From: a virus
Taxonomy: Duplodnaviria > Heunggongvirae > Uroviricota > Caudoviricetes > Ackermannviridae
DNA length: 64,000 nt
IMG/VR virus record: IMGVR_UViG_2974596396_000001
Coordinates: 24,254 to 88,253 of that record
Direction: 5' to 3' (one strand)
A program made the position numbers and the translations under genes. The stretch's first letter is position 1; each line of letters starts with the position of its first letter. Shown in pieces: positions 37,908 through 52,940 of this stretch. The notes under the pieces are model-generated. The model searched no databases. It was not told where the DNA came from and saw nothing but the letters and a program-made list of their open reading frames with translations.

Positions 37908-40900
37908 ATGGCCAACAAACCAACACAGCCTCTTTTCCCTTTGGGTTTAGAAACTTCTGAGTCTTCGAACATAAAAGGCTTCAACAACTCCGGCACTATT
38001 GAGCATTCCCCTGGTGCCGTAATGACATTTCCTGAAGATACTGAAGTTACAGGTCTTCCATCTTCTGTGCGTTACAATCCTGATAGTGATGAATTTGAAG
38101 GTTATTACGAAAACGGTGGTTGGTTGTCTTTGGGGGGCGGTGGAATACGCTGGGAAACGCTCCCTTACGCTCCCTCTAGCAATTTGTTAGAAGGTCGTAG
38201 CTATCTCATTAATAATACCACAGGGGCATCTACAGTGGTTCTCCCTTCCCCTACGCGTATTGGGGATTCCGTTACTATTTGTGATGCTTATGGGAAATTT
38301 GCCACTTACCCATTGACCGTGTCTCCTTCTGGAAATAATTTGTATGGCTCCACTGAAGACATGGCTATAACAACTGATAATGTTTCAGCAACGTTCACTT
38401 GGTCTGGACCTGAACAAGGTTGGGTTATCACATCCGGCGTCGGTCTTGGTCAAGGCCGTGTCTACAGTCGTGAAATCTTTACGCAAATTTTGGCGTCTGA
38501 AACAAGTGCTGTTACTCTCAATACTCCACCAACAATCGTGGACGTGTATGCTGACGGAAAACGTCTTGCGGAATCCAAATATTCACTAGATGGAAATGTA
38601 ATCACTTTCAGTCCTTCTTTGCCAGCCAGCACAGAACTTCAGGTGATTGAATATACTCCTATTCAATTGGGTAATGGCGGTGGTTCTGGTTCTTCTACAA
38701 TTACCTGGGTCTATAATGGGGGTTCAGCGATTGGCGGTGAAACCGAAATCACGTTAGACATCGTTGTTGATGATGTTCCGGCCATTGATATAAACGGAAG
38801 TCGCCAGTATAAAAATCTGGGGTTCACATTCGATCCATTAACCAGTAAAATCACTCTTGCGCAAGAACTGGATGCAGAGGATGAAGTTGTTGTAATTATC
38901 AATGGAACGCCAAACATCTATAATCAAATTGATTATACTTTGCGGGAAGTGGCTCGTGTAACCAATGTTAAAGATACAGAGGTCATTTATTTTAGTGTTG
39001 GTGCTGTGTTAAGTGGATATAAAGTTATCTATGATAAAGTAACACAGAGATCATATTTTATTCCAGAGCTACCGACTGGAACCACGGCAGTCAGCCTTAG
39101 TTCTTCGGCTGTACTTGTGCATTCTGCTGGTAGTGTTGATCTGGGCGCATTAGCTGTATCTCGTGAAGAATATGTTACATTGTCTGGTTCATTTGATTCT
39201 GGTGCTGTCATCAATGTTAAAAATGAATTACTTACTCATACAGATGGTAAGTATCGTTGGGATGGGGCATTACCTAAAACTGTCGATGCTGGATCAACGC
39301 CTGCATCAACTGGTGGCATCGGCGTAGGGAAGTGGTTAAGCGTTGGCGATGCGGCATTACGAACTAATTTAGCTTCTTATAATGGTTTTTCCCTGATTGG
39401 TGTGTGTCCTGATGTAATCACGTTGCGAACGCTTTCCGTACCAATTGGTAAGAAAGTATTGTTGCTCGGATATCATTCAGATCATCCTGGCACTGGCGGC
39501 GGAACCCTTTACGCCTCAAGTGATACATCACTAGCTGATGATGGTGTACGTGTTTTTGTCACATCAGATGGAACCCGTTTGGTAAGAGAGACTAATGGGG
39601 AGTTATATGCCTCATGGGCAGGTGCTGTTGGTGACTGGAACGGAACTACTGGCACAGATAATAAGGAAGCAATAGAACGGCTTATCACAGCATCAGGGAC
39701 TGAATTTAAATGGGTTATTGATTTAACGAATATTGGCGTAAGTTCTGTCGTTATTGATAACAAAAATAACTGGAATGGGCATATAAACGGCAGTGTAATC
39801 AATATTTCAGCTAAGCCAGCTGCCGGTGCCGTAGACAGAAAAGATCAGGATGGTGGATTGCTACCAACCATTAAAATTACAAACTCTGATGGCTGGAAAT
39901 TAACAGGTTCTTTTGTCGACAATCGTTATCGTGAGGCTTTCTATGTAGAATACTGCGATAACTTTGAACTAGGCTGCGCAAACCTTGGTAGTGGAATTAA
40001 CAATAATCTTGCGGCTAACCATTTCAGATACTGTAACCATTTTAAGTTAAATGGATGGAAGGTTGAAAAGTCGGGGGTTATTCCACTTGCAGGTTATTAC
40101 GATTGGGTTCAAGCTATAAGGATGTGGGACTGCTCTGGATTTATCATTGATGGATTAACATCACACATGAATGCAGGTAATGGTATTTATATCGCCAGTA
40201 ACTGCAAAGACTATGTTGTTACTAACTTTGACATAACAGAAAACGCCATGTCAGGAATACAGCTCGCTTGGTCAGGTTTTGGTGTAATGCCAATTAGAGG
40301 TGTTATCTCTAACGGAACCATCACTGGAAACAGGGCTGACAGTATAGACGTTAACAATACCAGCGGTATCAAAGCGAGACTTGATCTGATAATTTCCGGT
40401 GTTATAAATGCAAACAATGGTTACAACTCTGACGGAACGGTAACTGCCGACGGTTCTGGTTTGGGTACATTTATTAATGTTTCCCATTTCATAGTTGACG
40501 AGTGCTCTTCAACATCGCCAGCCCGCTCTGGAGTAGCTATAAGTAACTGCTCCAATTTCAGAGTAAAAGGTATTATAAAAAAAGACCAGCCATCTAATAG
40601 TGATGGACATGGGGTATACATTGAAAACAGCGCTGATGGTGAAATAGACGTTGACTGTATTACTGACTCTGCTAACGCAAACATGTACTCCATACGAACT
40701 TACGGGGCGCTTGAAAACATACACCTTTCAGGCAAATATGTTGGATATACCTTGTTTGGAGATGATGCAACTTATGTTAACTGCTCTCTTGATAAAGCGT
40801 CAATAATTTCCCCGACTACAGTCGCAAATCGTTTCCCATGGGAAAATGTGAACGTAGTTGTTTCTGGTTCAAATGCTGTTGATATCAAATCAACAGTGAA

Positions 40901-41237
40901 TAGTTGCCGATTTGTTTCTAACAATGGTCATGGGGGTGTGTTGTCTTCAGGTAACAACGATATTTCTGACTCAGAATTCTATGGAACAGATGGTGGACTT
41001 TACTGTGCTGACAACATTGGTCAGGTTAGGGTTAGAGGTGGTGTAGCCCAGGGTGGCTCAGCAGCAGGACTACGAATTAGTGGTGGTGAAAAGCATATCA
41101 TTGAAGGGTTAACCACAAAATCAACATCAGGCAACTCCTGTGTTATCACCAATGCTTCCAAAGTGATATACATTGGAAATGATGACTCTGCTAACCCAAC
41201 AAACTTTACAGGAACAACATTTACACTTCAGAACTAA
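37908..41237 (+). CDS. tsp4: tailspike TSP4 (baseplate anchor, XD branching domains, TD1-2, beta-helix)
   Basis: 1109 aa; MANKPTQPLFPLG N-terminus as in kuttervirus TSP4; YRWDGALPK TD motif; beta-helix-like C-terminus. Confidence 0.88.
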   Translation: MANKPTQPLFPLGLETSESSNIKGFNNSGTIEHSPGAVMTFPEDTEVTGLPSSVRYNPDSDEFEGYYENGGWLSLGGGGIRWETLPYAPSSNLLEGRSYLINNTTGASTVVLPSPTRIGDSVTICDAYGKFATYPLTVSPSGNNLYGSTEDMAITTDNVSATFTWSGPEQGWVITSGVGLGQGRVYSREIFTQILASETSAVTLNTPPTIVDVYADGKRLAESKYSLDGNVITFSPSLPASTELQVIEYTPIQLGNGGGSGSSTITWVYNGGSAIGGETEITLDIVVDDVPAIDINGSRQYKNLGFTFDPLTSKITLAQELDAEDEVVVIINGTPNIYNQIDYTLREVARVTNVKDTEVIYFSVGAVLSGYKVIYDKVTQRSYFIPELPTGTTAVSLSSSAVLVHSAGSVDLGALAVSREEYVTLSGSFDSGAVINVKNELLTHTDGKYRWDGALPKTVDAGSTPASTGGIGVGKWLSVGDAALRTNLASYNGFSLIGVCPDVITLRTLSVPIGKKVLLLGYHSDHPGTGGGTLYASSDTSLADDGVRVFVTSDGTRLVRETNGELYASWAGAVGDWNGTTGTDNKEAIERLITASGTEFKWVIDLTNIGVSSVVIDNKNNWNGHINGSVINISAKPAAGAVDRKDQDGGLLPTIKITNSDGWKLTGSFVDNRYREAFYVEYCDNFELGCANLGSGINNNLAANHFRYCNHFKLNGWKVEKSGVIPLAGYYDWVQAIRMWDCSGFIIDGLTSHMNAGNGIYIASNCKDYVVTNFDITENAMSGIQLAWSGFGVMPIRGVISNGTITGNRADSIDVNNTSGIKARLDLIISGVINANNGYNSDGTVTADGSGLGTFINVSHFIVDECSSTSPARSGVAISNCSNFRVKGIIKKDQPSNSDGHGVYIENSADGEIDVDCITDSANANMYSIRTYGALENIHLSGKYVGYTLFGDDATYVNCSLDKASIISPTTVANRFPWENVNVVVSGSNAVDIKSTVNSCRFVSNNGHGGVLSSGNNDISDSEFYGTDGGLYCADNIGQVRVRGGVAQGGSAAGLRISGGEKHIIEGLTTKSTSGNSCVITNASKVIYIGNDDSANPTNFTGTTFTLQN

Positions 41238-41431: not shown

Positions 41432-43528
41432 ATGATTTCTCAATTCAATCAACCACGCGGCTCCACTTCCGTAGAAGTTAACAAACAATCTATCGCTCGA
41501 AATTTCGGTGTCAAAGAAGACGAAGTCATTTATTTCACTGTCGGTATTGATCTCAGCGGATTTAAAGTAATTTATGATGAGTCTACCCAACGGGCTTATT
41601 CTCTTCCTTCGGGTATTGTTTCAGGAACGACTGCGATAAGTCTGAACGAACAAGCCATCCTCACTCATTCCGCTGGCTCTGTTGACCTTGGGGAATTAGC
41701 AGTAAGCCGCGAAGAATATGTGACTTTACCTGGTTCTTTTAATTTCGGCCATACCATTAATGTGAAAAATGAACTTCTTGTTCACGATGATAAAAAATAT
41801 CGATGGGATGGTTCACTTCCTAGAACTGTCTATGCTGGCTCAACACCTGAAACATCTGGTGGCGTTGGTTTAGGTGCATGGTTGAGTGTTGGTGACGCAG
41901 CATTTAGACAGGAAGCCAACAAAAAATTCAAATATTCAGTAAAGTTATCTGATTATTCTACATTACAGGATGCAGCGACAGCAGCCGTAGATGGATTGCT
42001 TATTGATGTTGACTACACTTTTACTGCAGATGAGAGTGTAGATTTTAGCGGTAAAGTTTTAATCATTGAATGCAAAGGAAAATTCATTGGCGATGGTATG
42101 TTGGTTTGGAATGGTTTGGGTGAGGGTTCAGTAATTAAGAAACCGCACATGCATACTAAAACTACGCCGTATACTGTTTACCGATTCGATGCAAACGGTA
42201 ATTGGGTTACAGACCCAACACAAGTTCTGGCATCTGTTCAGCAGCGTTTGGATGTTGGATATAAGCCAAATATTAACGATTTAGATATTTGGGACGACCT
42301 TCCTGATAATGTAAAAAATCAGGTTGCTGGTGCTACTTTGCGAATAATGAGCGGCGATAATATCATCGTAGAGAACCCAGAAGCTACATTTGGTGGTTAT
42401 CTATTTACTTTATGTAATAGGATTCTTGTTAAGAATCCACGCAATTTTATTGCTTTGGAATCGGGTATTACATTTGAGAACCATCATACAACTGCATGGG
42501 GTACTGGCAACTGGGTTGTTGGGGGTGAGATTAAATATGGCTCTGGTTCCGCTGTACTGTTCATTCGCAATGATGGTGGTACAGACCATGATGGTGGAGT
42601 AAGAGATTTAATCTCATACCGTGTTGGAGAATCAGGTATTAAAACCTATCAGAACGAAATTGGAGGTCGTTCAGCCAGGAACTACCGTTTAGTGTTCGAC
42701 AATATAACTACAATCCAGTGTTACTATGATGGTATTGATGTTAATGCTGACACAGGGTCGCCAACTGAACGTGTGGATGACTACTCACTCGCAGAGTATC
42801 CATGGTTCCACCTACCTACTCAACATATCATCCGTAATATTATTACTCGTGATTGTATGGGGATTGGTGCTTGGTGGGATGGTCAGAAAAATATTATTGA
42901 TAATGTTGTTACTTATGAGGCCCATAAGGAAGGCGTCTTCGATAGGGGTACTAACAATGATATTACTAACATTACTGTAGTAGGTGCGAATAAGGATTTA
43001 ACTAACTTAAATCAGCTTACCTGTGAGGGAGGTAGTAGACTTCGTGGTATTAACATCCATGCATATACTACACAAGGTTACGCTATATACGCTCCGTCTT
43101 CAGAAGTAAGTAATGTTTCCTGTGCTGGTTCCGGTACTAAGAAATTACTATGTACCTATATAAGCGATATTCAGGGAGGTAATATCAATGTTCAGCATAG
43201 TGCCAACCAAATGACACTTGCAATGCAACCTGCTATGGGTGGTACTACAAACCCATCTTTGCTTATGACGGCAGATTGCCAGGTTGCTACACCAGGGGGT
43301 GAGGCAAGTATTGTCAAGCTTTCGGCAATTCAGGAGGGTGTACGTGTAGGTGAGTTTCAGCTTAACCGCTTAGGCTTTAAGCATATGAGTATACCTGCTG
43401 CCCCTTTACAATTACCAGAGAGCGCTCTGGAACATAATTCATCTATAGGATTCTTCTTCGGAAGTGACGGAGCATTGAGGTTGCTTGCTAAAAAACCAGA
43501 TGGAAGTTATGTAACATACACACTTTAA
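41432..43528 (+). CDS. tsp3: tailspike TSP3, P22/Det7-like endorhamnosidase
   Basis: 698 aa; KYSVKLSDYSTLQDAATAAVDGLLID and DGIDVNADTG as in P22-type tailspikes. Confidence 0.88.
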   Translation: MISQFNQPRGSTSVEVNKQSIARNFGVKEDEVIYFTVGIDLSGFKVIYDESTQRAYSLPSGIVSGTTAISLNEQAILTHSAGSVDLGELAVSREEYVTLPGSFNFGHTINVKNELLVHDDKKYRWDGSLPRTVYAGSTPETSGGVGLGAWLSVGDAAFRQEANKKFKYSVKLSDYSTLQDAATAAVDGLLIDVDYTFTADESVDFSGKVLIIECKGKFIGDGMLVWNGLGEGSVIKKPHMHTKTTPYTVYRFDANGNWVTDPTQVLASVQQRLDVGYKPNINDLDIWDDLPDNVKNQVAGATLRIMSGDNIIVENPEATFGGYLFTLCNRILVKNPRNFIALESGITFENHHTTAWGTGNWVVGGEIKYGSGSAVLFIRNDGGTDHDGGVRDLISYRVGESGIKTYQNEIGGRSARNYRLVFDNITTIQCYYDGIDVNADTGSPTERVDDYSLAEYPWFHLPTQHIIRNIITRDCMGIGAWWDGQKNIIDNVVTYEAHKEGVFDRGTNNDITNITVVGANKDLTNLNQLTCEGGSRLRGINIHAYTTQGYAIYAPSSEVSNVSCAGSGTKKLLCTYISDIQGGNINVQHSANQMTLAMQPAMGGTTNPSLLMTADCQVATPGGEASIVKLSAIQEGVRVGEFQLNRLGFKHMSIPAAPLQLPESALEHNSSIGFFFGSDGALRLLAKKPDGSYVTYTL

Positions 43529-43540
43529 TTTATCTTGAGC

Positions 43541-43644
43541 AAAAACCCCGCTTTGGCGGGGTTCTTATTATACCTTTGTTCATAAATTTTATTAGTTCAG
43601 ACTAAATACCCCATATTGGCAAATCCTTTATGGGGTATTTTCAA
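43541..43644 (+). repeat. inter-tsp conserved cassette copy 2
   Basis: AAAAACCCCGCTTTGGCGGGGTTCTTATTATACC...CTAAATACCCCATA...TATGGGGTATT. Confidence 0.9.
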
Positions 43645-45873
43645 ATGACCAGAAATGTAGAAGAATTATTCGGCGGCGTAATCACAGCTCCCCACCAGAT
43701 TCCTTTCACGTATAAATCAAATGTCGGTGGAGAAACTTTTCTTTCCTTGCCGTTCTATCCCGTCACTGGTGTTATCACAATCAACGGTGGTATGCAAGTT
43801 CCGTTAGACAACTTTGAAATCGAAGGAAATACGTTGAATCTCGGACGCGCATTGTCCAAAGGCGATGTTGTGTATTGCTTATTCGATAAAATTCTTTCAC
43901 CAGAAGATACAGCCAAAGGTATCCGCATATACAAATTTCAGGCCGTAGGAGGGGAAACCGAGTTTACTCCTGATTTCACATCTTATGGAGTCCAATCTCT
44001 TTATATTGGTGGCGAGTACAAAACACCCGAAATTGAATATTCCTATAACAGCACGACAGGGAAAGTGTCTTTGCAAACTGCACTGACTGCAGGCGTTTGG
44101 GTAGTCGCTGAAATGTCTGTTAAACAACCGAATATCAGTCCGGCGTTTGACCGAAGTATTCAAGAAATCGCCCGTTCTGCTAATGTGAAAGACTCTGAAG
44201 TCATCGTTAGTACGGACACCATATCTTTGTTGGATGGGAAGAAAGTTGTTTATGACATAGCGACGCAAACCAGTTATGGTTTACCAACCATTCCTGATGG
44301 TTCTGTCATTTCTACGATCTCAGACGGGAAATTGAATTACAACCCAGGTGATGTGCAGGTTGATCTCTTACCATTACCAGATTCTTCTCAGGCGGTTAAA
44401 TTATTCTATTTACAACCAAGCGGCGCAGAAAATATTAAAGTTTCCAGTGGAGACACAGTACAAGATATTCTGAATAATATCAATAAACACCGTGTCGTTG
44501 GTAGTATGGCAGAACTTTTGAATGTGTCTCCAACTGAAACGACCTTCGTGTTTGTGACTTCTTTCCACCCATCAACCAATTATGGTGGTGGTTTCTTCCG
44601 TTGGGATCCTTCTGGGAACAAGGCTGCTCACAACGGCGGCACGATCATCGATCCTGGTAAAACGTTCCCGACTTGGGACAGCGCAGGGAAGACTTCTTGG
44701 TTTACCGCAAGCGGGACAGGTACTGGAGTTTGGCGTCGTCAAGACGTGATGGGTCATTACCGCGCTGAAGACTTTGGTGCGCTTCCTTGGAACGTCGGGG
44801 ACGCGCATGACAGTACCAAAGAATTCCAACAAGTGGCCAACGTGGCATATCGGGGTGGTTGCTGGAGATGGACAGGTCGCCATCGCATTACGAGTTATAT
44901 TGATATTCCCAATAAACAGACTTTTGGTTCATACGCCCAAATGACTTCTGTTTATTCTGAACTATTCCAGCCCAGCAATTTCCAGGGGGTGCACGTTATT
45001 TCTGATCCTTCTTTAGCGCGTTCTGTACAAAATGCTGTCTTCTTTGATGCTGCGACTGGAGAAGCATTCCGTTGTGGTGAAGGTGCATCACCAACAGATT
45101 GTTTGGTGTACGGAAGAGGGTTTACAACTACTGGGATGGATTTGGCGACATCATTACCTTCGGCGGCTTCGTATTGTGACACCCAAGCATTCCGTCATGG
45201 AAAGGCCATTAACGTGCGAAATGTTACTGTGGCGCTTATGAAGTACGCGTTGGATTCTAATCCATGGGATGCCAGCAAAGGTGATTATTATTCCACTACG
45301 GATCATATGACGATTCTGTATTGTTATTGTATTAGTCGTGTTCCATCCGGACAGGATATAACATTCAATACCAAGCATATCAATATGCGTGCTTATGTAA
45401 ACCAGATTGGCGATTATGGATTGGCGGTTCGAAATGTGGTGTTCATCGGCGGTTCGATCGAAGGGTATAACACTTCAACATACTTACGTTCCAGTACTCA
45501 ACTTTCTTTCAAAGGGACATATTTTGAAACGGGAGATACAGCATTCAATGGTACTGTATTCAGTCTTGTTGGTTGGTGTACTTTGAACTTTGAAGAATGT
45601 CTCGTTTATTTGAATAATACCAAAAACTTCGTGTCTTCGGGTGGTTCAGGACAGTCTGCTGGCGTCTTAGGTTTAACAATTAAATCTCAAGGTAATGTGT
45701 GGCGCAAAACTGACGTGGGAACAACTACGGTGTTTGCAGTTGATCCGGTCACTAATAAGCAAGCCTTGCTTGGATCCGAAATATTGAATGCTGTGAGTGG
45801 GGCAACTATCGCATATTGGGCTGGTGCCGTCCCACCTGGCACATACACAGCTCCAATCAGTGTTGCATTTTAA
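43645..45873 (+). CDS. tsp2: tailspike TSP2 (XD domains + receptor-binding domain); start revised to MTRNVEE
   Basis: kuttervirus TSP2-type N-terminus; GGGFFRWD, AEDFGA pre-beta-helix motifs. Confidence 0.82.
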   Translation: MTRNVEELFGGVITAPHQIPFTYKSNVGGETFLSLPFYPVTGVITINGGMQVPLDNFEIEGNTLNLGRALSKGDVVYCLFDKILSPEDTAKGIRIYKFQAVGGETEFTPDFTSYGVQSLYIGGEYKTPEIEYSYNSTTGKVSLQTALTAGVWVVAEMSVKQPNISPAFDRSIQEIARSANVKDSEVIVSTDTISLLDGKKVVYDIATQTSYGLPTIPDGSVISTISDGKLNYNPGDVQVDLLPLPDSSQAVKLFYLQPSGAENIKVSSGDTVQDILNNINKHRVVGSMAELLNVSPTETTFVFVTSFHPSTNYGGGFFRWDPSGNKAAHNGGTIIDPGKTFPTWDSAGKTSWFTASGTGTGVWRRQDVMGHYRAEDFGALPWNVGDAHDSTKEFQQVANVAYRGGCWRWTGRHRITSYIDIPNKQTFGSYAQMTSVYSELFQPSNFQGVHVISDPSLARSVQNAVFFDAATGEAFRCGEGASPTDCLVYGRGFTTTGMDLATSLPSAASYCDTQAFRHGKAINVRNVTVALMKYALDSNPWDASKGDYYSTTDHMTILYCYCISRVPSGQDITFNTKHINMRAYVNQIGDYGLAVRNVVFIGGSIEGYNTSTYLRSSTQLSFKGTYFETGDTAFNGTVFSLVGWCTLNFEECLVYLNNTKNFVSSGGSGQSAGVLGLTIKSQGNVWRKTDVGTTTVFAVDPVTNKQALLGSEILNAVSGATIAYWAGAVPPGTYTAPISVAF

Positions 45874-45920: not shown

Positions 45921-47192
45921 ATGAATCCGCAATTTGCTCAACCAAAAGGTTCTACTTCAAAAGAATCGAACAAAGATAGTATTGCCCGTAAATTTGGGTG
46001 TAAAAAGTCGGAAGTCGTTTATGCCAAAGCGGGACAGTCATTGTCTGGTTATAAAGTGATCTACGATAAGTTGTCTCAACGTGCCTACGCTCTCCCTTCT
46101 AACATTGGTGCTGTAACAGTCACCAGTTTGGTCGACGGCATCCTCACACACTCTGGAGGCACTGTAGACCTTGGGAAATTAGCCGTATCCCGAGAAGAAT
46201 ACGTCACATTATCTGGGTCCTTTTCTTCTGGTGTTACGCTTAATGTTAAAAATGAATTACTTACCCATACTAATGGTAAATATCGTTGGGACGGTGCGCT
46301 CCCTAAAACTGTAGCCCCTGGTTCAACGCCAGCAACAACTGGTGGGATTGGCTTGGGTGCTTGGGTTAGTGTTGGTGACGCAGCTTTGCGTAGCGATTTG
46401 ACTGATTTAATCAGTTTTGTTCCTGATAATCCTCATGAAAAATTAAACAGTGCTTATGACGACAATAATACATTGTCTGTCAGTACATGGAATATTCAAA
46501 GCTATCAAGTTATTTCATCTAGATATGGTAGAAATATAACTTCACCGAAACGTTTTTTTGACTTAAGCAACTTCATAACTCAAACAGCGCCGCAAATCGT
46601 AGGTATGCAAGAAGCATATGACGGGCCATCAGCGCATATGAGTAATCTCGCGGTTGAGCCGTATGTAGATGAATCTTTTGGCTACGGAAGCGTAAATACA
46701 GATACAATCAATCTGATGGTTGGGTATCGCGCTGGTAATTCAACCTTGTCAGCATATCCACTAAGCGAGAATAAGGTTATCAGAGTGACAGATGAGGGAA
46801 CATATATCAGACTTGCTTCTCGAGATACGTTAAATCACCCGATTATTGGTAAAATAGCCATCTATAACGTTCATGGTAGTTGGTTTGAAGCAGCAGCCAT
46901 GCAGCTATACTCAGATATTATTTCTGATTACAAGACACTTGGCGTAACAAAAGTAATCGTAATTGGTGATTTCAACCACGACACCACAGAGCCTTGGTTT
47001 TCAGCTTTTACTGATGATGGATTTACTATAGTCAATAACATGAATTATGACACACGTAATGATGGTTCGGGGAGTTGGTATATAGATAACATCATAATCA
47101 AAGGATTTACCGTGCAGGATGTGCAGGTTTCAGCGCCTGACCCATCACTTTCAGACCACAAAATGTTAACCGCTATTCTCAAGGTGGCATGA
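45921..47192 (+). CDS. TSP1-position protein: tailspike attachment module fused to an endonuclease/exonuclease/phosphatase (EEP) domain
   Basis: MNPQFAQPKGS TSP1 N-terminus and TD motif; then STWNI, GMQEA, NVHG, IGDFNH, IDNI, LSDHKM. Confidence 0.8.
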   Translation: MNPQFAQPKGSTSKESNKDSIARKFGCKKSEVVYAKAGQSLSGYKVIYDKLSQRAYALPSNIGAVTVTSLVDGILTHSGGTVDLGKLAVSREEYVTLSGSFSSGVTLNVKNELLTHTNGKYRWDGALPKTVAPGSTPATTGGIGLGAWVSVGDAALRSDLTDLISFVPDNPHEKLNSAYDDNNTLSVSTWNIQSYQVISSRYGRNITSPKRFFDLSNFITQTAPQIVGMQEAYDGPSAHMSNLAVEPYVDESFGYGSVNTDTINLMVGYRAGNSTLSAYPLSENKVIRVTDEGTYIRLASRDTLNHPIIGKIAIYNVHGSWFEAAAMQLYSDIISDYKTLGVTKVIVIGDFNHDTTEPWFSAFTDDGFTIVNNMNYDTRNDGSGSWYIDNIIIKGFTVQDVQVSAPDPSLSDHKMLTAILKVA

Positions 47193-47193
47193 T

Positions 47194-48000
47194 ATGTATA
47201 ATACAATCGATGGCGATGTAATGCTTTCCGGTGGAAAATCCGCCGATGTGATGCTGAGAGCTATTCTGGCATCAGTAAAAACACTATCAGACAATAAAAC
47301 CATCCCCGTAATTACCGATCTTTCAGATATAGGGATGAGCAGAGAGACTAATACCCTATCTGAAATAGCTCAGCATATGCCTGTTGGTGCAATTGCCGTT
47401 ATTGGTGTGTCAGGTTCTGGCGCTTACGCCTCTACTCTTCCTATGCCTACTTTGTCTAATGGAGGATCGGCGGCATATACGTCAGGTCAGATTATCGCAT
47501 TCAAAGATTTAGGTGACTGGAATAAGGTGTATTTCTGGTATGCGGGTGGCGCTGATTTTACCGCTACGGCTATGTATAACGGAAATTTAGGAACGCCGTG
47601 GAGCGGATGGAAATTCCCCCAAAGCGCCCCCCTGATCGTAAAACCAGTGCCAGCAGAATTTAATAATTTAATGTCGAACATCTGGGTTTCCGGGGACTAC
47701 TACTTTTCTGGAACGCAGGTGGCCGCATTTACTGACCGCCCGCCTAATGCTGGCGCTGGGTATCTAAAGGTTATAAATGCAACTGGTCGTCAGGATTCAG
47801 ATAAACTATTGGAATTCACTGAAAATGGACCAACTACTAAAGCTTGGCGCAGAGTTTCATATTCAACCCAGTGGGTTTCAGTGCCATCAGTTAATTTAAC
47901 CGCTGTATCTGATTCATCATTAAGGATTGGAGACATGAAAGTAAATTCATCAGGAAATTTAATGATAAGAACAAATTCAAATACAGTTAAGGAAATTTAA
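47194..48000 (+). CDS. tail-fibre knob-like (pyocin knob/gp53-like) protein
   Basis: 268 aa; FNNL...SGDYYF...AGAGYLKVI...LLEFTE...KAWRR. Confidence 0.55.
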   Translation: MYNTIDGDVMLSGGKSADVMLRAILASVKTLSDNKTIPVITDLSDIGMSRETNTLSEIAQHMPVGAIAVIGVSGSGAYASTLPMPTLSNGGSAAYTSGQIIAFKDLGDWNKVYFWYAGGADFTATAMYNGNLGTPWSGWKFPQSAPLIVKPVPAEFNNLMSNIWVSGDYYFSGTQVAAFTDRPPNAGAGYLKVINATGRQDSDKLLEFTENGPTTKAWRRVSYSTQWVSVPSVNLTAVSDSSLRIGDMKVNSSGNLMIRTNSNTVKEI

Positions 48001-48010
48001 TAATCAAACA

Positions 48011-48040
48011 AAAACCCCGCTTCGGCGGGGTTTTTATTTC
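48011..48040 (+). terminator. intrinsic terminator
   Basis: AAAACCCCGC-TTCG-GCGGGGTTTTT. Confidence 0.85.
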
Positions 48041-48101: not shown

Positions 48102-51100
48102 ATGCAATCTACAAATTTAAACCGTCGCCCGTATTGGGATGACTGGAATCCTGGGAAACGTTTTTCACGGATTCTTTTTCGTCCGATGCCTATCAAGGTT
48201 CAGACTCGCGAACTGAACCAGATGCAGACTATTCTTCAGGATCAAATTGAAAAACTGGGCAACCATTTGTTCAAAGATGGTTCTATGGTTATCCCTGGCG
48301 GTCTGACGATCACCAATGCCGCAGTCTCTTTGAAATTCACTTTGGCGGGTGGTACTGAATTCACCGATCTGGAAGGTATTTCTGAACTCTACGTTTTGGG
48401 GAAAGACAATAACGCCAAAGCGCGTGTGTTGTCTCTTGAACGTGATCTGTCTGCTCCTGATACGATGCTGGCTATCCTTGAGATGACTGAAGCGGGTAAT
48501 GCTGACGGATTCCATGTTAACGATAATCTGTATTTCCAGACTTACGACGTGAATGATAATTTCATTCGTATTGGTTATGGTATCGCGGCTGCTGTGACTG
48601 GTTCTATCGTTGCTCGTATGACGAAAGGCGTTTACTTCATTCGTGGGATGTTCCTAGACGTTGATGACGCAACTCTTATCGTTGATAAAACTTCGAACAC
48701 GTCTTCCCATCGCGTCGGATTTAAAGTCACTGAAACCATCGTGACTGAATCTGAAGACGAATCCCTTTATTCAAATGCTCAGGGAACGATTAACTCTAAA
48801 GCGCCAGGCGCTCATCGTCTTCGAATAGATCTGGTCTTATCTCGATTTGATTATGATGCTGTGGTTGAAGACTTTGTTGAACTGGCCAAAGTTCGTGATG
48901 GTAAAATCCAGTCTATGGTGACTCAGTCTACCTATAATATTCTGGAAGACACGTTGGCCCAACGGACTTATGAAACCAACGGCGATTATAACGTTTCGAC
49001 TCATCAGATCGATATTCGTGAACACCTGAAAGTCAATAACAATGGCGGGGTATTCAATGCTGCTGATGGCGGTGACGAGAGCAAATTTGTTTCTGTGATG
49101 AAACCAGGCATCTCCTATGTTCGCGGTCGCCGTATCGAAAACGTCGGGGAAGAGTTGGTGATCGTTGATAAGGCGCGGGATACCGATGTCCTGAACAACA
49201 CCCCTGTTGCGGTGGCCACAGGCAATTATCTGGTCACTAAGAATTCTAAAGGTGTGCCAGTGATATCCCGCACCGTTCGATACAAATTACTGAATGCTTC
49301 AGGCGTTACCCAGGCTACAGCACTTTGTATATCAGCTGAACGTAATTCAACAGAATTTCGTCTATATATGCGCGACCTGGTCGTTACTGGCGATGCATCC
49401 ACTATCACCAAAGTGTCTTACGAAGAAAGCGGTATCACCATGTTCTCTGCTGAACTTGAATCCAATCAGTTTAACCAGAGTTCTATGATAGATCTGATCT
49501 TCTCTCTTCCGGTATTCGGTGTCAAGACTTTAGCACCAACTGGCTCCGTGGATATCAACTACACTGTTCTCAGAACGTATAAAGTGACGTTGGACAACAG
49601 CGGCGCGGGTTCTATTTCTGCTCCATTGGGATATAGTTTTTCCCCAGAATTTTCGTTGTACTCTGCAGCGAAATCAGATGGTTCAGAAGCGCAGTTCGAT
49701 ATCTCTGGTTCTTTGTCTTTGACTGGTTCTCCGGTCGGTTCGGCGCTGCAGATTTCTCTGGGCAGTGGTAATGCTAACCAGTCAATCAATTTGCTGGCGC
49801 TGATGATTCGTACCACGGCCACAATTAAAACGAAGACCATCACTGAAACAACTGAAACAGTGACGTTCACCTCGCAGACTAGCCGTCCTTTGGCGAATCA
49901 CGATGGTTGGAAATTGGTATCGGTCAAAAACGATACTGGCGCAGACGTGACCTCCAGCTTCGTCCTAGATGGCGGACAGCGTGATGCAGGGTATTACAAG
50001 TCTAACTTGTTATCCAGCGCTGGAGCAATCTCAGGGACGTATACAGTGGTGTATCAATACTTCGCCCACAGTTCCGGTGATTTCTTCTCTGCTGATTCGT
50101 ATACTTCGATGGATTATAAAGATATCCCGAATTATACATCTTCTACATCAGGCGCGGTGTACGGTCTGGCAGATAGTTTGGATTTCCGTCCGAAAATTAC
50201 CAACGGAACTTCTGACACAGATATGGTTCGTCCAAACACTGCAGTTATTCTGGACACAGAATATTATCTGCCGCGTATCGACGCGATTTATCTGGCAGAC
50301 AACGGTGTGTTTGGTGTGGCTCGAGGCATCAGTTCTAATAATCTGGCTTCTCCAGCAATCCCAGCGAACGCCATGCGTTTGTATGAATTGTTGATCCCGC
50401 CGTATACACCGAATATTGATGATATCCAAATTCGAACTATTGATAATCGTCGTTATACAATGCGCGATATCGGTAAACTGGAAACCCGTATTTCTAATGT
50501 TGAATACTATACCTCTCTGTCACAGCTGGAATCTTCAGCGATGACACAGCAAGTGTTCGACCCCATCACGGGCAATCCCCGTTTCAAAAATGGTATTGCA
50601 GCTGATCCGTTCAAAGACTTCCGGTTGATTGATGACTTGTCTGAAGATTGGATGGGTTCTATCGATACCGAAAACGGACGTCTGCGCCCGTTTGTACAAC
50701 AAAACGTTGTTGACATGACTCCGGTTGGCTGGAACAAAGTGATGGATGGGATGGTGGTTTGTAATTACACGCCTGAAATCTCGGTGAACCAAGAATATGC
50801 GACGACGACGATCAACGTTAACCCGTATGCTGTATTCAATTGGGAAGGTTTCTTGAAGATTAACCCGACCACAGACTACTGGTTCGAAAACTATTATGTT
50901 GCGCCGCGTATTATCAATGAAACGATCAACACCCGTGGTACTGTACAAGAAGGTTCAGTGTACGGAACATGGCGTACTGTTTCTGTTTCTGATCGTGTTT
51001 GGGAACCGCATGGTGCTGGTGGTGTGTGGTGGGGATATCGTTACCGCACGACTGTTTCTGCCCGTGATGTCACCACATATACATACACGGACAAAACAAC

Positions 51101-52940
51101 CACGACCATGACTGGTGAACAGATTGTGGAGACGCAAGTTATCCCATACATGCGCGAGATCGATATTTCTTTCGACGCATCTGGGCTGCGACCTTTCACT
51201 CGTATGTATGCGTTCTTCTCTGGTCGTGACGTCAATCTGTATTGCAAACCGAATGGCGGTAATTTCGGTGACCCAATCACCACTGATGCCAATGGTGCTG
51301 TTAAAGGTGTATTCCGCGTTCCACAGAACGATACAATCAAGTTCAACACAGGCGACAACGTGTTCCGCTTAACGGATAGCCCTGTTGACAGTAAATCTGC
51401 GGATGACACACTGACCAATGCAGAAATTGTTCATAAATCTTTCGGTAAGAAACAAGGTATTCAAAAGACCTTTGTCAACACTCGTGTCCTGGGTTACACT
51501 GCCAGTACTCGCACCGAAACCAGCACTTCTGAAGTTGTGGTCGACCAATGGCGTGATCCGATTGCCCAATCGTTTATGGTGGCGACTAAGAATGGCGGCG
51601 AGTATATCGAAGGCGTGGAAGTGTTCTTCTCTACCAAGTCACGTGATGTTCCGATCACTCTGGAAATTCGCGAGATGGAGAATGGCTTACCTTCTCATAC
51701 AGTCATTACTCGTAAAACTTTGAACCCGTCTGAAGTGACGATCTCTACAGACTCTTCCGGCGGTACGAAGTTCACCTTTGATTATCCGGTGTATCTGCAA
51801 GCAACGACTGAGTTTGCTATCGTTTTGTTGGCGAATACTCAGGATTACAACGCGTATATCGCGGAAATGGGCAAGAAAAACCTTCTGTCCAACGAATATA
51901 TCGCCAAACAACCGTATACAGGGGTGTTCTTCACTTCTTCAAACGGTTCTACATGGTCTCCGAACCAAATGGCCGATATGAAATTCCGCATATATCGTTG
52001 CAACTTTGCGGCTGGACAGAACGTTGTAACATTTGATCCGAAGCTCGGGCCAAAACAACGTCCGTTGGGATTGAATACTCTGAACTGCGTGAGTGGGTCT
52101 TCTGTTGTGACTGTGTTTGCACCTGGTCATGGTTTGGTTGCTGGGAACAATGTTACTCTTTCTGAATTGACAGGCGGTTGTGGCTTTACTCCTGAACAAC
52201 TTAACAAAACGTTTACTGTGACAGATGCGAGCTATACTTCATTCAAGATTGACGTCGGTACGGCAGCAGAGAGCAATGGACAAATCGGTGGAGATAATGC
52301 TTCTTTCTTGGGCAATTATCTGGTTGATATGTTCTATGCCAGCGTTACCAATTCGGCTCTGGAAGGTTCAATTCTGAAATTGGAATACCGTTATCGCGAT
52401 GCCACTTCAAATTCTATGTCTGATTGGGCTGAGTTTGAAACTGACACTGACGTGGCATTGCCGACTGAAGGTATCTATCGTCAGGTCGGGGATTTCCAAA
52501 TCCGAGCCACCATGACGCGTAGTGAAAACAACGTGTACACTGCTCCAATGATTGATGGCGATGACCTGAGCGTAATCTTCAACTCATACGGTGTGGATCC
52601 ATTTGAAGATGTCTTCAAATACGTGACAAAGGACATCGGATTTGATAATCCGTGTTCTACTGTGAAGTTGTTCTTTGGTGCAATGCTCCCATCTCAGTCT
52701 TCGATGAAGGTGCAGGTGAAACTTCTACGAGCAGGGCAAGAGATGGATAGTGTGGCTTGGGAAGACGTCACCCCAACTTCGCCTCTGGTTAACGACGGTT
52801 CCACATTCTTTGAATATGAGTATGACAAGACTGTGGCGAGCAATAACCCGTTTGTTGGCCTGAAAGTCCGAGCGCTTGTACGGGGGAACCGCGTTGCTCC
52901 TCCTTCATTCAAAGACTTCCGTCTTATTGCTCTGGCATAA
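48102..52940 (+). CDS. VriC/VrlC-like large baseplate-associated virion protein
   Basis: 1612 aa; PYWDDW...ILFRP...QTRELNQMQ N-terminus, RYTMRDIGKLETRI, DPIAQSF; CTAAATA at 48062-48068. Confidence 0.85.
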   Translation: MQSTNLNRRPYWDDWNPGKRFSRILFRPMPIKVQTRELNQMQTILQDQIEKLGNHLFKDGSMVIPGGLTITNAAVSLKFTLAGGTEFTDLEGISELYVLGKDNNAKARVLSLERDLSAPDTMLAILEMTEAGNADGFHVNDNLYFQTYDVNDNFIRIGYGIAAAVTGSIVARMTKGVYFIRGMFLDVDDATLIVDKTSNTSSHRVGFKVTETIVTESEDESLYSNAQGTINSKAPGAHRLRIDLVLSRFDYDAVVEDFVELAKVRDGKIQSMVTQSTYNILEDTLAQRTYETNGDYNVSTHQIDIREHLKVNNNGGVFNAADGGDESKFVSVMKPGISYVRGRRIENVGEELVIVDKARDTDVLNNTPVAVATGNYLVTKNSKGVPVISRTVRYKLLNASGVTQATALCISAERNSTEFRLYMRDLVVTGDASTITKVSYEESGITMFSAELESNQFNQSSMIDLIFSLPVFGVKTLAPTGSVDINYTVLRTYKVTLDNSGAGSISAPLGYSFSPEFSLYSAAKSDGSEAQFDISGSLSLTGSPVGSALQISLGSGNANQSINLLALMIRTTATIKTKTITETTETVTFTSQTSRPLANHDGWKLVSVKNDTGADVTSSFVLDGGQRDAGYYKSNLLSSAGAISGTYTVVYQYFAHSSGDFFSADSYTSMDYKDIPNYTSSTSGAVYGLADSLDFRPKITNGTSDTDMVRPNTAVILDTEYYLPRIDAIYLADNGVFGVARGISSNNLASPAIPANAMRLYELLIPPYTPNIDDIQIRTIDNRRYTMRDIGKLETRISNVEYYTSLSQLESSAMTQQVFDPITGNPRFKNGIAADPFKDFRLIDDLSEDWMGSIDTENGRLRPFVQQNVVDMTPVGWNKVMDGMVVCNYTPEISVNQEYATTTINVNPYAVFNWEGFLKINPTTDYWFENYYVAPRIINETINTRGTVQEGSVYGTWRTVSVSDRVWEPHGAGGVWWGYRYRTTVSARDVTTYTYTDKTTTTMTGEQIVETQVIPYMREIDISFDASGLRPFTRMYAFFSGRDVNLYCKPNGGNFGDPITTDANGAVKGVFRVPQNDTIKFNTGDNVFRLTDSPVDSKSADDTLTNAEIVHKSFGKKQGIQKTFVNTRVLGYTASTRTETSTSEVVVDQWRDPIAQSFMVATKNGGEYIEGVEVFFSTKSRDVPITLEIREMENGLPSHTVITRKTLNPSEVTISTDSSGGTKFTFDYPVYLQATTEFAIVLLANTQDYNAYIAEMGKKNLLSNEYIAKQPYTGVFFTSSNGSTWSPNQMADMKFRIYRCNFAAGQNVVTFDPKLGPKQRPLGLNTLNCVSGSSVVTVFAPGHGLVAGNNVTLSELTGGCGFTPEQLNKTFTVTDASYTSFKIDVGTAAESNGQIGGDNASFLGNYLVDMFYASVTNSALEGSILKLEYRYRDATSNSMSDWAEFETDTDVALPTEGIYRQVGDFQIRATMTRSENNVYTAPMIDGDDLSVIFNSYGVDPFEDVFKYVTKDIGFDNPCSTVKLFFGAMLPSQSSMKVQVKLLRAGQEMDSVAWEDVTPTSPLVNDGSTFFEYEYDKTVASNNPFVGLKVRALVRGNRVAPPSFKDFRLIALA

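Follow-up and report, generated by a model that had tools for sequence, protein, structure and literature searches.

A TSP1-slot tailspike gene with a C-terminal EEP phosphoesterase domain and an adjoining partner gene in an Ackermannviridae phage: a candidate enzyme for phosphate-bridged O-antigens

The TSP1 slot and the exchanged block

In the Kuttervirus-type Ackermannviridae genome IMGVR_UViG_2974596396_000001, analysed here over a stretch of 64,000 nucleotides (the window), the tailspike genes stand in the order TSP4-TSP3-TSP2-TSP1, and the last of the row, P0001, has both the anchor and the position of an Ackermannviridae TSP1. The gene starts with ATG, and the + strand is the only open strand across it. 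A preliminary description had read P0001 as a TSP1 attachment module carrying an EEP phosphoesterase in the place of a beta-helix. The extent given there for the ORF was right, but the unit continues into the next ORF, which lies in the same transferred block. The features of the locus are collected in Table 1.

Table 1. Features of the TSP1-slot locus (positions in the window)
Feature	Position	Strand	Basis
TSP1-slot gene, P0001, 423 aa, TSP1 anchor and C-terminal EEP phosphoesterase domain	45921..47192	+	ORF list, translation, Pfam
Anchor module, aa 1-~164 (CBA120 TSP1 N-terminal domains)	45921..46412	+	Comparisons with 4oj5, Salmonella-phage TSP1 and SeSz-1
Left recombination junction, inside Tail_spike_N	46281..46364		blastn
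Exchanged block: end of Tail_spike_N, EEP domain and partner gene	46365..48002	+	blastn borders, composition
EEP catalytic domain, aa 181-422	46461..47186	+	Pfam, 40-sequence alignment, fold matches
Shine-Dalgarno-like AAGGTGG, within the end of the EEP gene	47181..47187	+	Sequence reading
Partner gene, P0013, 268 aa, no Pfam family	47194..48000	+	Conserved adjacency, structure model
Intrinsic-terminator-like hairpin, CCCCGC-TTCG-GCGGGG then T run	48015..48039	+	Sequence reading

The attachment module proposed for the N-terminus was confirmed by several comparisons. Tail_spike_N was detected by Pfam at aa 88-153 (E 1.4e-24), residues 1-176 matched residues 1-180 of CBA120 TSP1 (orf210, 4oj5) with an E value of 7e-63, and the anchor is 83% identical to TSP1 of the Salmonella phages Chennai and PM10. 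At the DNA level, the anchor is 95% identical to phage SeSz-1 (blastn). Since the anchor is retained, mounting on the branched tailspike complex is expected, and P0001 should dock into this complex, judging from the sequence. In gene position and N-terminal anchor P0001 is thus like the TSP1s of CBA120 and of kutterviruses. However, the ordinary TSP1 of kutterviruses is a single polypeptide of ~600-780 aa whose body is a beta-helix glycosidase (770 aa in SeSz-1, a typical case), whereas the locus described here encodes a 260-aa EEP domain and a separate 268-aa protein. The beta-helix body of TSP1 is absent from P0001, in which nothing but the EEP domain was found past aa ~165, and the protein is, as had been pointed out, far shorter than the remaining three tailspikes of the window (1109, 698, and 747 aa). 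A TSP1-like N-terminus was found in 926 records of the phage collection, none of which spans at least 80% of P0001.

The borders of the exchanged block were located by blastn. Homology to SeSz-1 ends at 46364 and homology to prophage L002 (78%) begins at 46281, and the stretch between these positions aligns with the cassette of the E. coli prophage as well as with the Kuttervirus backbone; the Kuttervirus backbone homology is back at 48003. The block, which takes the place of the last ~600 aa of the usual Kuttervirus TSP1, has a G+C content of 41.1% against 44.7% for the window, and no near match to it was present in the phage collection. The terminator-like hairpin lies in the resumed Kuttervirus backbone and is predicted to close the tailspike transcription unit.

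The EEP domain and the partner protein

The EEP domain was detected by Pfam as Exo_endo_phos (PF03372) at aa 189-413, over profile positions 2-225 of 225 (E 2.8e-12), with a score of 47.3 bits against a cut-off of 24.5, and it ends one residue ahead of the stop codon. Every motif of the catalytic set listed in the preliminary description (WN, QE, H, GDFN, D, SDH) could be assigned, namely W190-N191, Q230-E231, H318, G349-D350-F351-N352, D389, and S411-D412-H413, and the catalytic and metal-binding residues that mark EEP membership (N191, E231, H318, D350, N352, D389, D412, and H413) are complete. An alignment of 40 relatives, with identities of 22-92%, revealed no variation at N191, Q230, E231, H318, N352, D389, D412, and H413 and almost none at D350, which is replaced by tyrosine in one relative, P0011. 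Because these residues are invariant over such a range of identities, catalysis can be argued to be under selection. The catalytic set is intact, and phosphoesterase activity is predicted from it.

The fold assignment was examined by structure comparison, which had been put forward as a check. The full-length model of P0001 is of low confidence (pLDDT 60.6); Foldseek matches of the EEP domain were EEP structures, including 3mpr, 3g6s, TDP2, and nocturnin (E 3e-10 to 1e-8), and the ESM Atlas model of the EEP protein gave TM scores of 0.73-0.80 to ten EEP clusters. In profile comparisons the top solved relative was the uncharacterised protein 3teb, followed by partial matches to sphingomyelinase C (7cne, E 2.6e-8, positions 5-188 of 242) and beta-hemolysin (3k55, E 1.8e-6, positions 45-184 of 242). 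The match to a Bacteroides glycan mannosyl-6-phosphatase (4c1r) had an E value of 3e-4, and those to DNase I and ExoIII were marginal (E 0.0016 to 0.5). Sphingomyelinase C, beta-hemolysin, and the mannosyl-6-phosphatase share the EEP fold and the catalytic residues with P0001, but these cellular enzymes, which act on lipid and glycan phosphoesters, are secreted or periplasmic proteins of low similarity without a phage anchor. The subfamily to which the domain of P0001 belongs counts no more than 70 representatives in a set of 1.84 billion proteins and is confined to phage tail proteins, in which the EEP domain is almost always at the extreme C-terminus, preceded by anchors of the Phage_T7_tail, Tail_spike_N, Phage_tail_fib, or P22 head-binding type.

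The partner gene, P0013, follows closely. The EEP gene stops with TGA at 47190-47192, the ATG of the partner lies one base on, and this layout, together with the Shine-Dalgarno-like motif within the end of the EEP gene, suggests translational coupling of the two genes. In its structure model (pLDDT 75.7), P0013 opens with a short helix, continues with a pair of knob-like beta domains in tandem (aa ~36-142 and 143-232), and closes with a small domain at the C-terminus. VIA-align matched the model to residues 444-645 of the P68 tail fibre (Z 12.4, rmsd 3.2 A, 176 residues) and to residues 436-636 of phi11 Gp45 (Z 11.4, 181 residues), both values lying far over the unrelated rows. The C-terminal tower or knob of phi11 Gp45 (5efv), P68 (6iab), the 80alpha receptor-binding protein (RBP; 6v8i), and pyocin knobs (6cl5) superposes on residues 36-231 of P0013, one knob of this comparison set giving a Z of 9.8, and an ESM Atlas feature score of 0.92 was obtained against 'pyocin knob domain' clusters. 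With 12-15% identity, a relationship of the Staphylococcus aureus RBPs and the pyocin to P0013 is undetectable in sequence. The architecture differs as well, in that the S. aureus RBPs carry the tower on the same chain as a stem and a beta-propeller platform, whereas P0013 is a separate gene product after the EEP protein. P0013 has no curated family in Pfam or NCBIfam, and its sole PHROG is phrog_22156, of unknown function. Peptide-pattern scans of genome and viral contig collections, which are of low informativeness, yielded no P0013 relative with the patterns used. Based on the modelled fold, P0013 is probably a distal fibre tip. The corresponding protein of phage CR8, gp17.01, was reported as a putative tailspike (PMC4038870).

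Distribution of the cassette and O-antigens of its hosts

The EEP part matched 13 records of the phage collection, with no Ackermannviridae among them. Considered together with the TSP1-like records above, no other Ackermannviridae record in the collection has such a head, in agreement with the earlier statement that no receptor-binding enzyme of this kind was known in the family. The pairing of EEP and partner was found in E. coli and Providencia prophages, in one metagenomic prophage, and in the phages CR8, CR44b, CrRp3, Cronobacter B1, BEK2/3, and W22; at all nine locus types examined the partner ORF comes right after the EEP gene. Three draft E. coli assemblies (GCA_024713505.1, GCA_039577605.1, and GCA_011604855.1) are among the carriers of the cassette. 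The more the EEP domain has diverged, the more the partner tends to have diverged as well (Spearman 0.58; the 36 pairs compared are not mutually independent). Cassette order and adjacency in CR8 and CR44b (gp17 and gp17.01), CrRp3, B1, BEK2/3, W22, and PM 116 are like those in the window, with identities of ~27-30% for the EEP domain and 26-35% for the partner in the CR8 group, the partner of PM 116 being related to P0013 by structure only. The phages of this group differ in their anchors (the T7 gp17 N-terminus and others), belong to other families, and carry only the annotations 'tail fiber' or 'virion protein'. Overall, Autographiviridae, Drexlerviridae, Stephanstirmvirinae, and temperate phages possess the cassette, under no other label than 'tail fiber protein', and their hosts lie within Enterobacterales (E. 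coli, Citrobacter, Cronobacter, Providencia, Morganella, and Proteus). The EEP cassette is thus new for Ackermannviridae and not unique among phages. No description of an EEP-type tail fibre or tailspike, or of the cassette as such, was found in the literature outside subscription journals. In the GenBank notes on CR8, both gp17 (the EEP fibre) and gp17.01 (the partner) are recorded with 'matches in mass spectrometry analysis'.

Several of the hosts point to the O-antigen. Six of the 13 EEP-module records are from Citrobacter rodentium phages (CR8, CR44b, and CrRp3), which represent two Autographiviridae subfamilies, CR8 and CR44b on the one hand and CrRp3 on the other. The O-antigen of C. rodentium is O152-like (PMC12501221), and O152 includes alpha-GlcNAc-(1-P-6)-alpha-Glc (PMC3989065). 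Sugar-P-sugar bridges occur in 6 of 182 E. coli O-groups, O152 and O173 among them (PMC9912281). A search of 5,426 complete E. coli genomes at the DNA level, which used two variants of the query and may have let diverged copies escape, recovered the cassette in a single strain, 1919D3, as a prophage remnant. This strain is also one of only five of the 5,426 genomes with an O173-family wzy (chance expectation 5/5426), and a Stealth CR2/CR3 protein, a phosphotransferase, is among the products of its O173-family O-antigen cluster. The cassette is absent from the other four O173-family genomes, which is expected for a prophage trait and adds no support. In the prophages L004 and L013 the cassette is adjoined by the O-antigen glucosylation genes gtrA, gtrB, and gtr, which are typical of phages with an O-antigen receptor.

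These host links amount to few independent events, namely the C. rodentium phages and one E. coli prophage remnant, and they favour, circumstantially, phosphate-linked O-antigen among the three substrates proposed earlier. The EEP domain of the window is 48% identical to that of 1919D3 and about 30% to that of CR8, and its substrate may therefore differ from theirs. Two further observations were set aside. The K-12 host of BEK2/3 was considered as counter-evidence to an O-antigen target and was counted neither way, the cassette of these Drexlerviridae being a side fibre; phages can do without side fibres on rough laboratory strains. The LPS-core receptor data of C. rodentium phage Eifel2 are irrelevant here, this phage being a Felixounavirus without the cassette.

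Proposed function and its alternatives

Non-glycosidase heads on this anchor have been met before. G7C gp63.1 (4qnl) has an anchor of this family (E 1e-47 over aa 1-162 of P0001) and an enzymatic head that is not a glycosidase; together with gp66 it forms a two-protein receptor-binding complex. The head of G7C is an SGNH deacetylase and the second protein a full tailspike, whereas in the window an EEP head is accompanied by a small knob-domain protein. Closer in chemistry are two GDPD (PF03009) tailspikes of enterobacterial phages, P0175 and P0120 (439-502 aa, close to P0001 in size), in which the same Tail_spike_N anchor bears a C-terminal phosphodiesterase head; the GDPD fold is a TIM-barrel unrelated to EEP, and these tailspikes are likewise uncharacterised. 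Because GDPD also occurs there, phosphodiester-cutting heads on the Tail_spike_N anchor are not a one-off. An ORF of ~260 aa without a family lies directly downstream of the GDPD tailspikes; when tried as a relative of P0013, it was not detectably related (hhalign probability 0.1).

We consider it somewhat probable that P0001 is a virion phosphodiesterase of the EEP type which cuts phosphate-bridged O-antigen of the O152/O173 type with the help of a fibre-tip partner. The TSP1 position would be filled by a two-component receptor-binding device that came in a single block from temperate phages of the E. coli type. Its first protein would be held on the branched tailspike complex by the TSP1 anchor and present a metal-dependent EEP phosphoesterase at its end; the second, a short trimeric-fibre-like piece with knob domains, would dock on the EEP module and, as the distal tip, may aid receptor recognition. 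The enzyme would most likely hydrolyse the sugar-1-phosphate bridge in the backbone of an O152/O173-type O-antigen, acting as an O-antigen depolymerase through a phosphodiesterase mechanism and not as a glycosidase or lyase, and depolymerisation would open a path to the outer membrane for the phage.

The enzyme might instead act on another surface phosphoester. Its targets might be phospho-substituents (phosphoethanolamine, side groups of glycerol or ribitol phosphate, or the phosphates of core and lipid A), the removal of which would modify the receptor, or it might cut the lipid-anchor phosphodiester of enterobacterial common antigen or capsule in the manner of sphingomyelinase or phospholipase C. 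This we regard as unlikely. Sphingomyelinase C and beta-hemolysin are the best solved profile relatives after 3teb, with 4c1r also listed, although the sphingomyelinase matches are weak and partial. The SGNH esterase G7C gp63.1 is an earlier case of a receptor-modifying tailspike with this anchor, which SGNH-type relatives (P0131 and P0141) share. The spread of the cassette across Enterobacterales counts in the same direction, but its rarity in E. coli suits a rare serotype-specific receptor over a universal lipid anchor or core phosphate, and the O152/O173 association indicates backbone phosphodiesters. Action of the EEP domain as a virion-borne nuclease, opening access to cells by degrading the extracellular DNA of biofilms, seems highly improbable. 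The EEP superfamily includes DNase I, ExoIII/APE1, and TDP2, and Foldseek returned TDP2 and nocturnin; however, DNase I and ExoIII score below sphingomyelinases and uncharacterised bacterial EEPs in the profile comparisons, and the fibre-tip partner, the serotype-linked hosts, and the gtr neighbours suit a specific cell-surface receptor and not DNA. The acidity of the domain (pI 4.7) is a weak argument to the same effect.

A different kind of alternative dispenses with the enzyme. The EEP domain may be a platform or adaptor for the partner, which would be the real receptor binder, catalysis being dispensable or vestigial. The partner has the fold of distal domains of receptor-binding proteins and always accompanies the EEP module, the S. 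aureus RBPs have a globular platform ahead of a like tower (alignments with 5efv and 6iab), and D350 is replaced by tyrosine in one relative. In a pure scaffold, however, the invariance of the eight other catalytic residues and the near-invariance of D350 in 40 sequences down to 22% identity would be unexpected, and we hold the platform role to be rather less likely than action on another surface phosphoester.

Returning to the phosphodiesterase that cuts O-antigen, a wider proposal can be put forward tentatively: EEP endo-phosphodiesterases may form a new class of depolymerases for O-antigens of the O152/O173 type, and possibly for other phosphate-bridged O- or K-antigens, which would need the knob tip, the cassette moving between at least five phage lineages through recombination in Tail_spike_N. 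The enzymes of tailspikes are, to our knowledge, glycosidases, lyases, and deacetylases, and we know of no phage enzyme against phosphate-bridged O-antigens or capsules. The presence of related copies in phages and prophages of hosts with phosphate-bridged O-antigens suggests that the EEP tailspike and its partner are an undescribed kind of receptor-destroying enzyme. If this is true, a phosphodiesterase head would extend the known chemistry by which phages strip polymers from the bacterial surface, and it would account for host recognition by all three sequenced podophages of C. rodentium, a mouse-model pathogen. Host range would be better predicted from tailspike sequences now labelled only 'tail fiber', and a compact exchangeable module of about 260 + 268 aa would become available for work on chimeric tailspikes.

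The TSP1-slot gene and its EEP domain

The window belongs to a Kuttervirus-type genome, the IMG/VR record of which is complete (160.4-kb, with terminal repeats), and its flanks match SeSz-1, SP1 and similar Salmonella phages at 95-98% identity. The preliminary description had placed an EEP phosphoesterase in the TSP1 slot of this genome, and the assignment was borne out by the open reading frame (ATG start, no open frame on the opposite strand), by two Pfam domains (see the table) and by the solved TSP1 of phage CBA120, which aligns to residues 1-176 of the product, P0001, at E 7e-63. Among Salmonella kutterviruses, the identity of TSP1 to this anchor reaches 83%. P0001 is TSP1 by position and anchor only, not by a beta-helix, and belongs to the EEP superfamily on every criterion testable in this analysis.

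Features of the tailspike region (nucleotide positions in the window unless stated)
Feature	Position	Description
TSP4	37908-41237	First in tailspike row
TSP3	41432-43528	Second in row; P22-tailspike family
TSP2	43630-45873	Third in row
EEP gene (product P0001)	45921-47192 (+)	TSP1 slot, after TSP2; 423 aa
Tail_spike_N	P0001 aa 88-153	Pfam, E 1.4e-24
Exo_endo_phos	P0001 aa 189-413	Pfam, full-length (profile positions 2-225 of 225), 47.3 bits vs cut-off 24.5
Partner ORF (product P0013)	47194-48000 (+)	268 aa
Two-gene cassette	45921-48000	Predicted functional unit
Hairpin	48015-48039	Terminator-like, of the Kuttervirus backbone, 3' of exchanged block
1612-aa protein	48102-52940	phrog_358 and phrog_877, function not known

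Two other proteins of the region were also noted. TSP3 gave a full-length match to the P22-tailspike family (PF09251, E 2.9e-106) on a Tail_spike_N anchor; tailspikes of this family are endorhamnosidases acting on Salmonella O-antigen, a hint that the hosts of this phage include Salmonella. The 1612-aa protein after the tailspike row, whose counterparts in related phages are annotated as "VrlC" or "tail fiber", is conserved among kutterviruses and lies outside the cassette.

Only 70 relatives of the EEP domain came up at E<=1e-3 among 1.84 billion representative proteins. When 40 of them (22-92% identity) were aligned, N191, Q230, E231, H318, N352, D389, D412 and H413 were invariant and D350 nearly so, and every catalytic motif named in the preliminary description was found in P0001. 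The domain ends 0-3 residues ahead of the stop codon in almost all relatives, and the anchors ahead of it include the T7 gp17 N-terminus, Tail_spike_N, a tail-collar fibre N-terminus and the P22 head-binding domain. The domain is intact, and its subfamily is confined to phages. The EEP fold, proposed beforehand as a test, was recovered by Foldseek matches on a low-confidence model of P0001 and independently by an ESM Atlas model (TM 0.73-0.80 to EEP clusters).

The partner gene and the exchanged block

The preliminary description was right in recognizing an EEP tailspike, and its interpretation is supported in part; its extent was too short, as the unit also takes in the partner gene. The partner ORF starts one base past the TGA of the EEP gene, with its ribosome site (AAGGTGG) inside the 3' end of that gene, and a partner homolog lies directly 3' of the EEP gene at all loci examined: E. 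coli prophages (L002, L025, L026 and L013, the last in strain 1919D3), a metagenomic prophage (L004), Providencia prophages (L006, L007), and phages CR8, CR44b, CrRp3, Cronobacter B1, BEK2/3 and W22. In Proteus phage PM 116, an overlapping ORF of 214 aa follows the EEP gene, and a PM 116 protein of the same length resembles the partner model at the structural level only. EEP and partner divergence were correlated over nine loci (Spearman 0.58 for 36 pairs, which are not independent), with EEP/partner identities of, for example, 89/73%, 79/69%, 53/46%, 48/49% and 30/35%. No fusion of the two in one chain was seen among the EEP-domain relatives. The two genes form one cassette.

Kuttervirus homology ends at 46364, within Tail_spike_N, and returns at 48003, and positions 46281-47992 are 78% identical to an E. 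coli prophage cassette (both by blastn); SeSz-1 has one TSP1 of 770 aa in the same slot. The G+C content of the exchanged block (41.1%) is lower than that of the window (44.7%). Among the closest cassette relatives of the window (79-93% identity) are E. coli proteins and sequences from metagenomes. A longer variant, with a partner of 402-411 aa, is common to W22 (Justusliebigvirus; L001:8809-11043) and BEK2 (Drexlerviridae; L012:3245-5981); their EEP domains are 56% and their partners 59% identical on unrelated phage backbones, a further case of the pair moving together.

P0013 has no Pfam or NCBIfam family. Its model, built from ten homologs (pLDDT 75.7), has two knob domains between a flexible N-terminus (aa 1-35, modelled at low confidence) and a small C-terminal domain. 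The model matches the P68 tail fibre at residues 444-645 (Z 12.4; rmsd 3.2 A for 176 residues) and phi11 Gp45 at residues 436-636 (Z 11.4), which form the C-terminal "tower" in these receptor-binding proteins of S. aureus phages. Further matches are to single knob domains, in R-type pyocin fibres (Z 9.8), T4 gp34 and a protein of phage K, and the Atlas points to "pyocin knob domain" clusters. P0013 therefore resembles a short distal segment of a fibre and would dock on the EEP module to make the fibre tip. In the CR8 GenBank record, gp17 (the EEP fibre) and gp17.01 (the partner) each carry the note "matches in mass spectrometry analysis"; the CR8 genome announcement termed the partner a putative tailspike and predicted its fold to be like that of the PRD1 adsorption protein (PMC4038870).

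Candidate substrates

Several observations bear on the substrate. Of the 13 phage records with the EEP module, six are of phages that infect C. rodentium; these six represent three phages, CR8 and CR44b from one Autographiviridae subfamily and CrRp3 from another. The O-antigen of C. rodentium is E. coli O152-like (PMC12501221), and alpha-GlcNAc-(1-P-6)-alpha-Glc, a linkage that a Stealth-family transferase is predicted to form, is part of the O152 backbone (PMC3989065). Sugars are joined via phosphodiester in only 6 of 182 E. coli O-groups, including O152 and O173 (PMC9912281). DNA-level searches of 5,426 complete E. coli genomes with two cassette variants found the cassette in exactly one, strain 1919D3, whose O-antigen cluster carries O173-family wzx and wzy (RefSeq annotation) and also encodes a Stealth CR2/CR3 protein, confirmed in this analysis. 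Since this wzy occurs in only 5 of the 5,426 genomes, the chance expectation of finding both in one genome is about 0.001. The 1919D3 cassette is in a prophage remnant, adjoining gtrABC and an integrase, and O-antigen glucosylation (gtr) genes adjoin the cassette in two prophage types. Such gtr genes are typical of phages with O-antigen as receptor.

At the 1919D3 locus (L013/L017, NZ_CP046006.1 1400060-1408970) and in the metagenomic prophage (L004:8001-14154), the cassette lies directly beside gtrA/gtrB/gtr and an integrase at a tRNA-Arg/yfdC site; in the 1919D3 remnant an IS3 element cuts a TipJ-family tail gene and the ORFs of the cassette are intact. E. coli SE11 (L020, NC_011415.1 2355500-2366979) has the same cluster of O173-family wzx/wzy, Stealth and GDP-fucose genes, and its wzy shares 99.1% identity with that in 1919D3. 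SE11 is usually listed as O152:H28, so its genotype may conflict, or cross-react, with the published serotype; the O-antigens of both groups are phosphate-bridged.

In 72-kb enterobacterial phages, the Tail_spike_N anchor also bears GDPD, a phosphodiesterase fold unrelated to EEP. Tailspikes of this type (L015:5001-7301, from a metagenomic phage of this size; proteins P0175, P0120 and P0197) have a GDPD (PF03009) glycerophosphodiesterase head, and the 261-aa ORF that comes next has no family and no detectable relationship to P0013. These may be a second, independent type of phosphodiesterase tailspike in enterobacterial phages.

The C. rodentium phages, the O173-family cluster of 1919D3, the gtr genes and the GDPD heads on the same anchor make a phosphate-linked O-antigen, which belongs to the first of the three options in the preliminary description, the favored candidate substrate, on circumstantial grounds and from few independent events. 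It is less favored that the EEP domain strips phospho-substituents, cuts lipid anchors or degrades DNA. In profile comparisons the nearest solved structure was an uncharacterised EEP protein (3teb, E 1e-12), followed by sphingomyelinase C (E 2.6e-8), beta-hemolysin (E 1.8e-6), a Bacteroides mannosyl-6-phosphatase (E 3e-4) and DNase I/ExoIII (E 0.0016 to 0.5). That the EEP tailspike acts as a glycan phosphodiesterase is a well-motivated and moderately probable hypothesis.

Relation to known receptor-binding systems

As a device, the EEP tailspike with its partner is most similar to other two-protein or non-glycosidase receptor-binding systems that use this anchor, G7C gp63.1/gp66 among them, and staphylococcal receptor-binding proteins have a layout (anchor, globular head, tower) similar to that of the EEP tailspike with its partner. 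Homologous cassettes are already in GenBank under generic names. The literature search found no paper that recognizes the cassette, a tail fibre with an EEP domain or such a phosphodiesterase depolymerase, and a survey of Ackermannviridae tailspike subtypes mentions neither "phosphatase" nor "endonuclease" (PMC8432352). What appears to be new here is the catalytic fold of a putative receptor-binding enzyme, together with its seemingly obligate partner.
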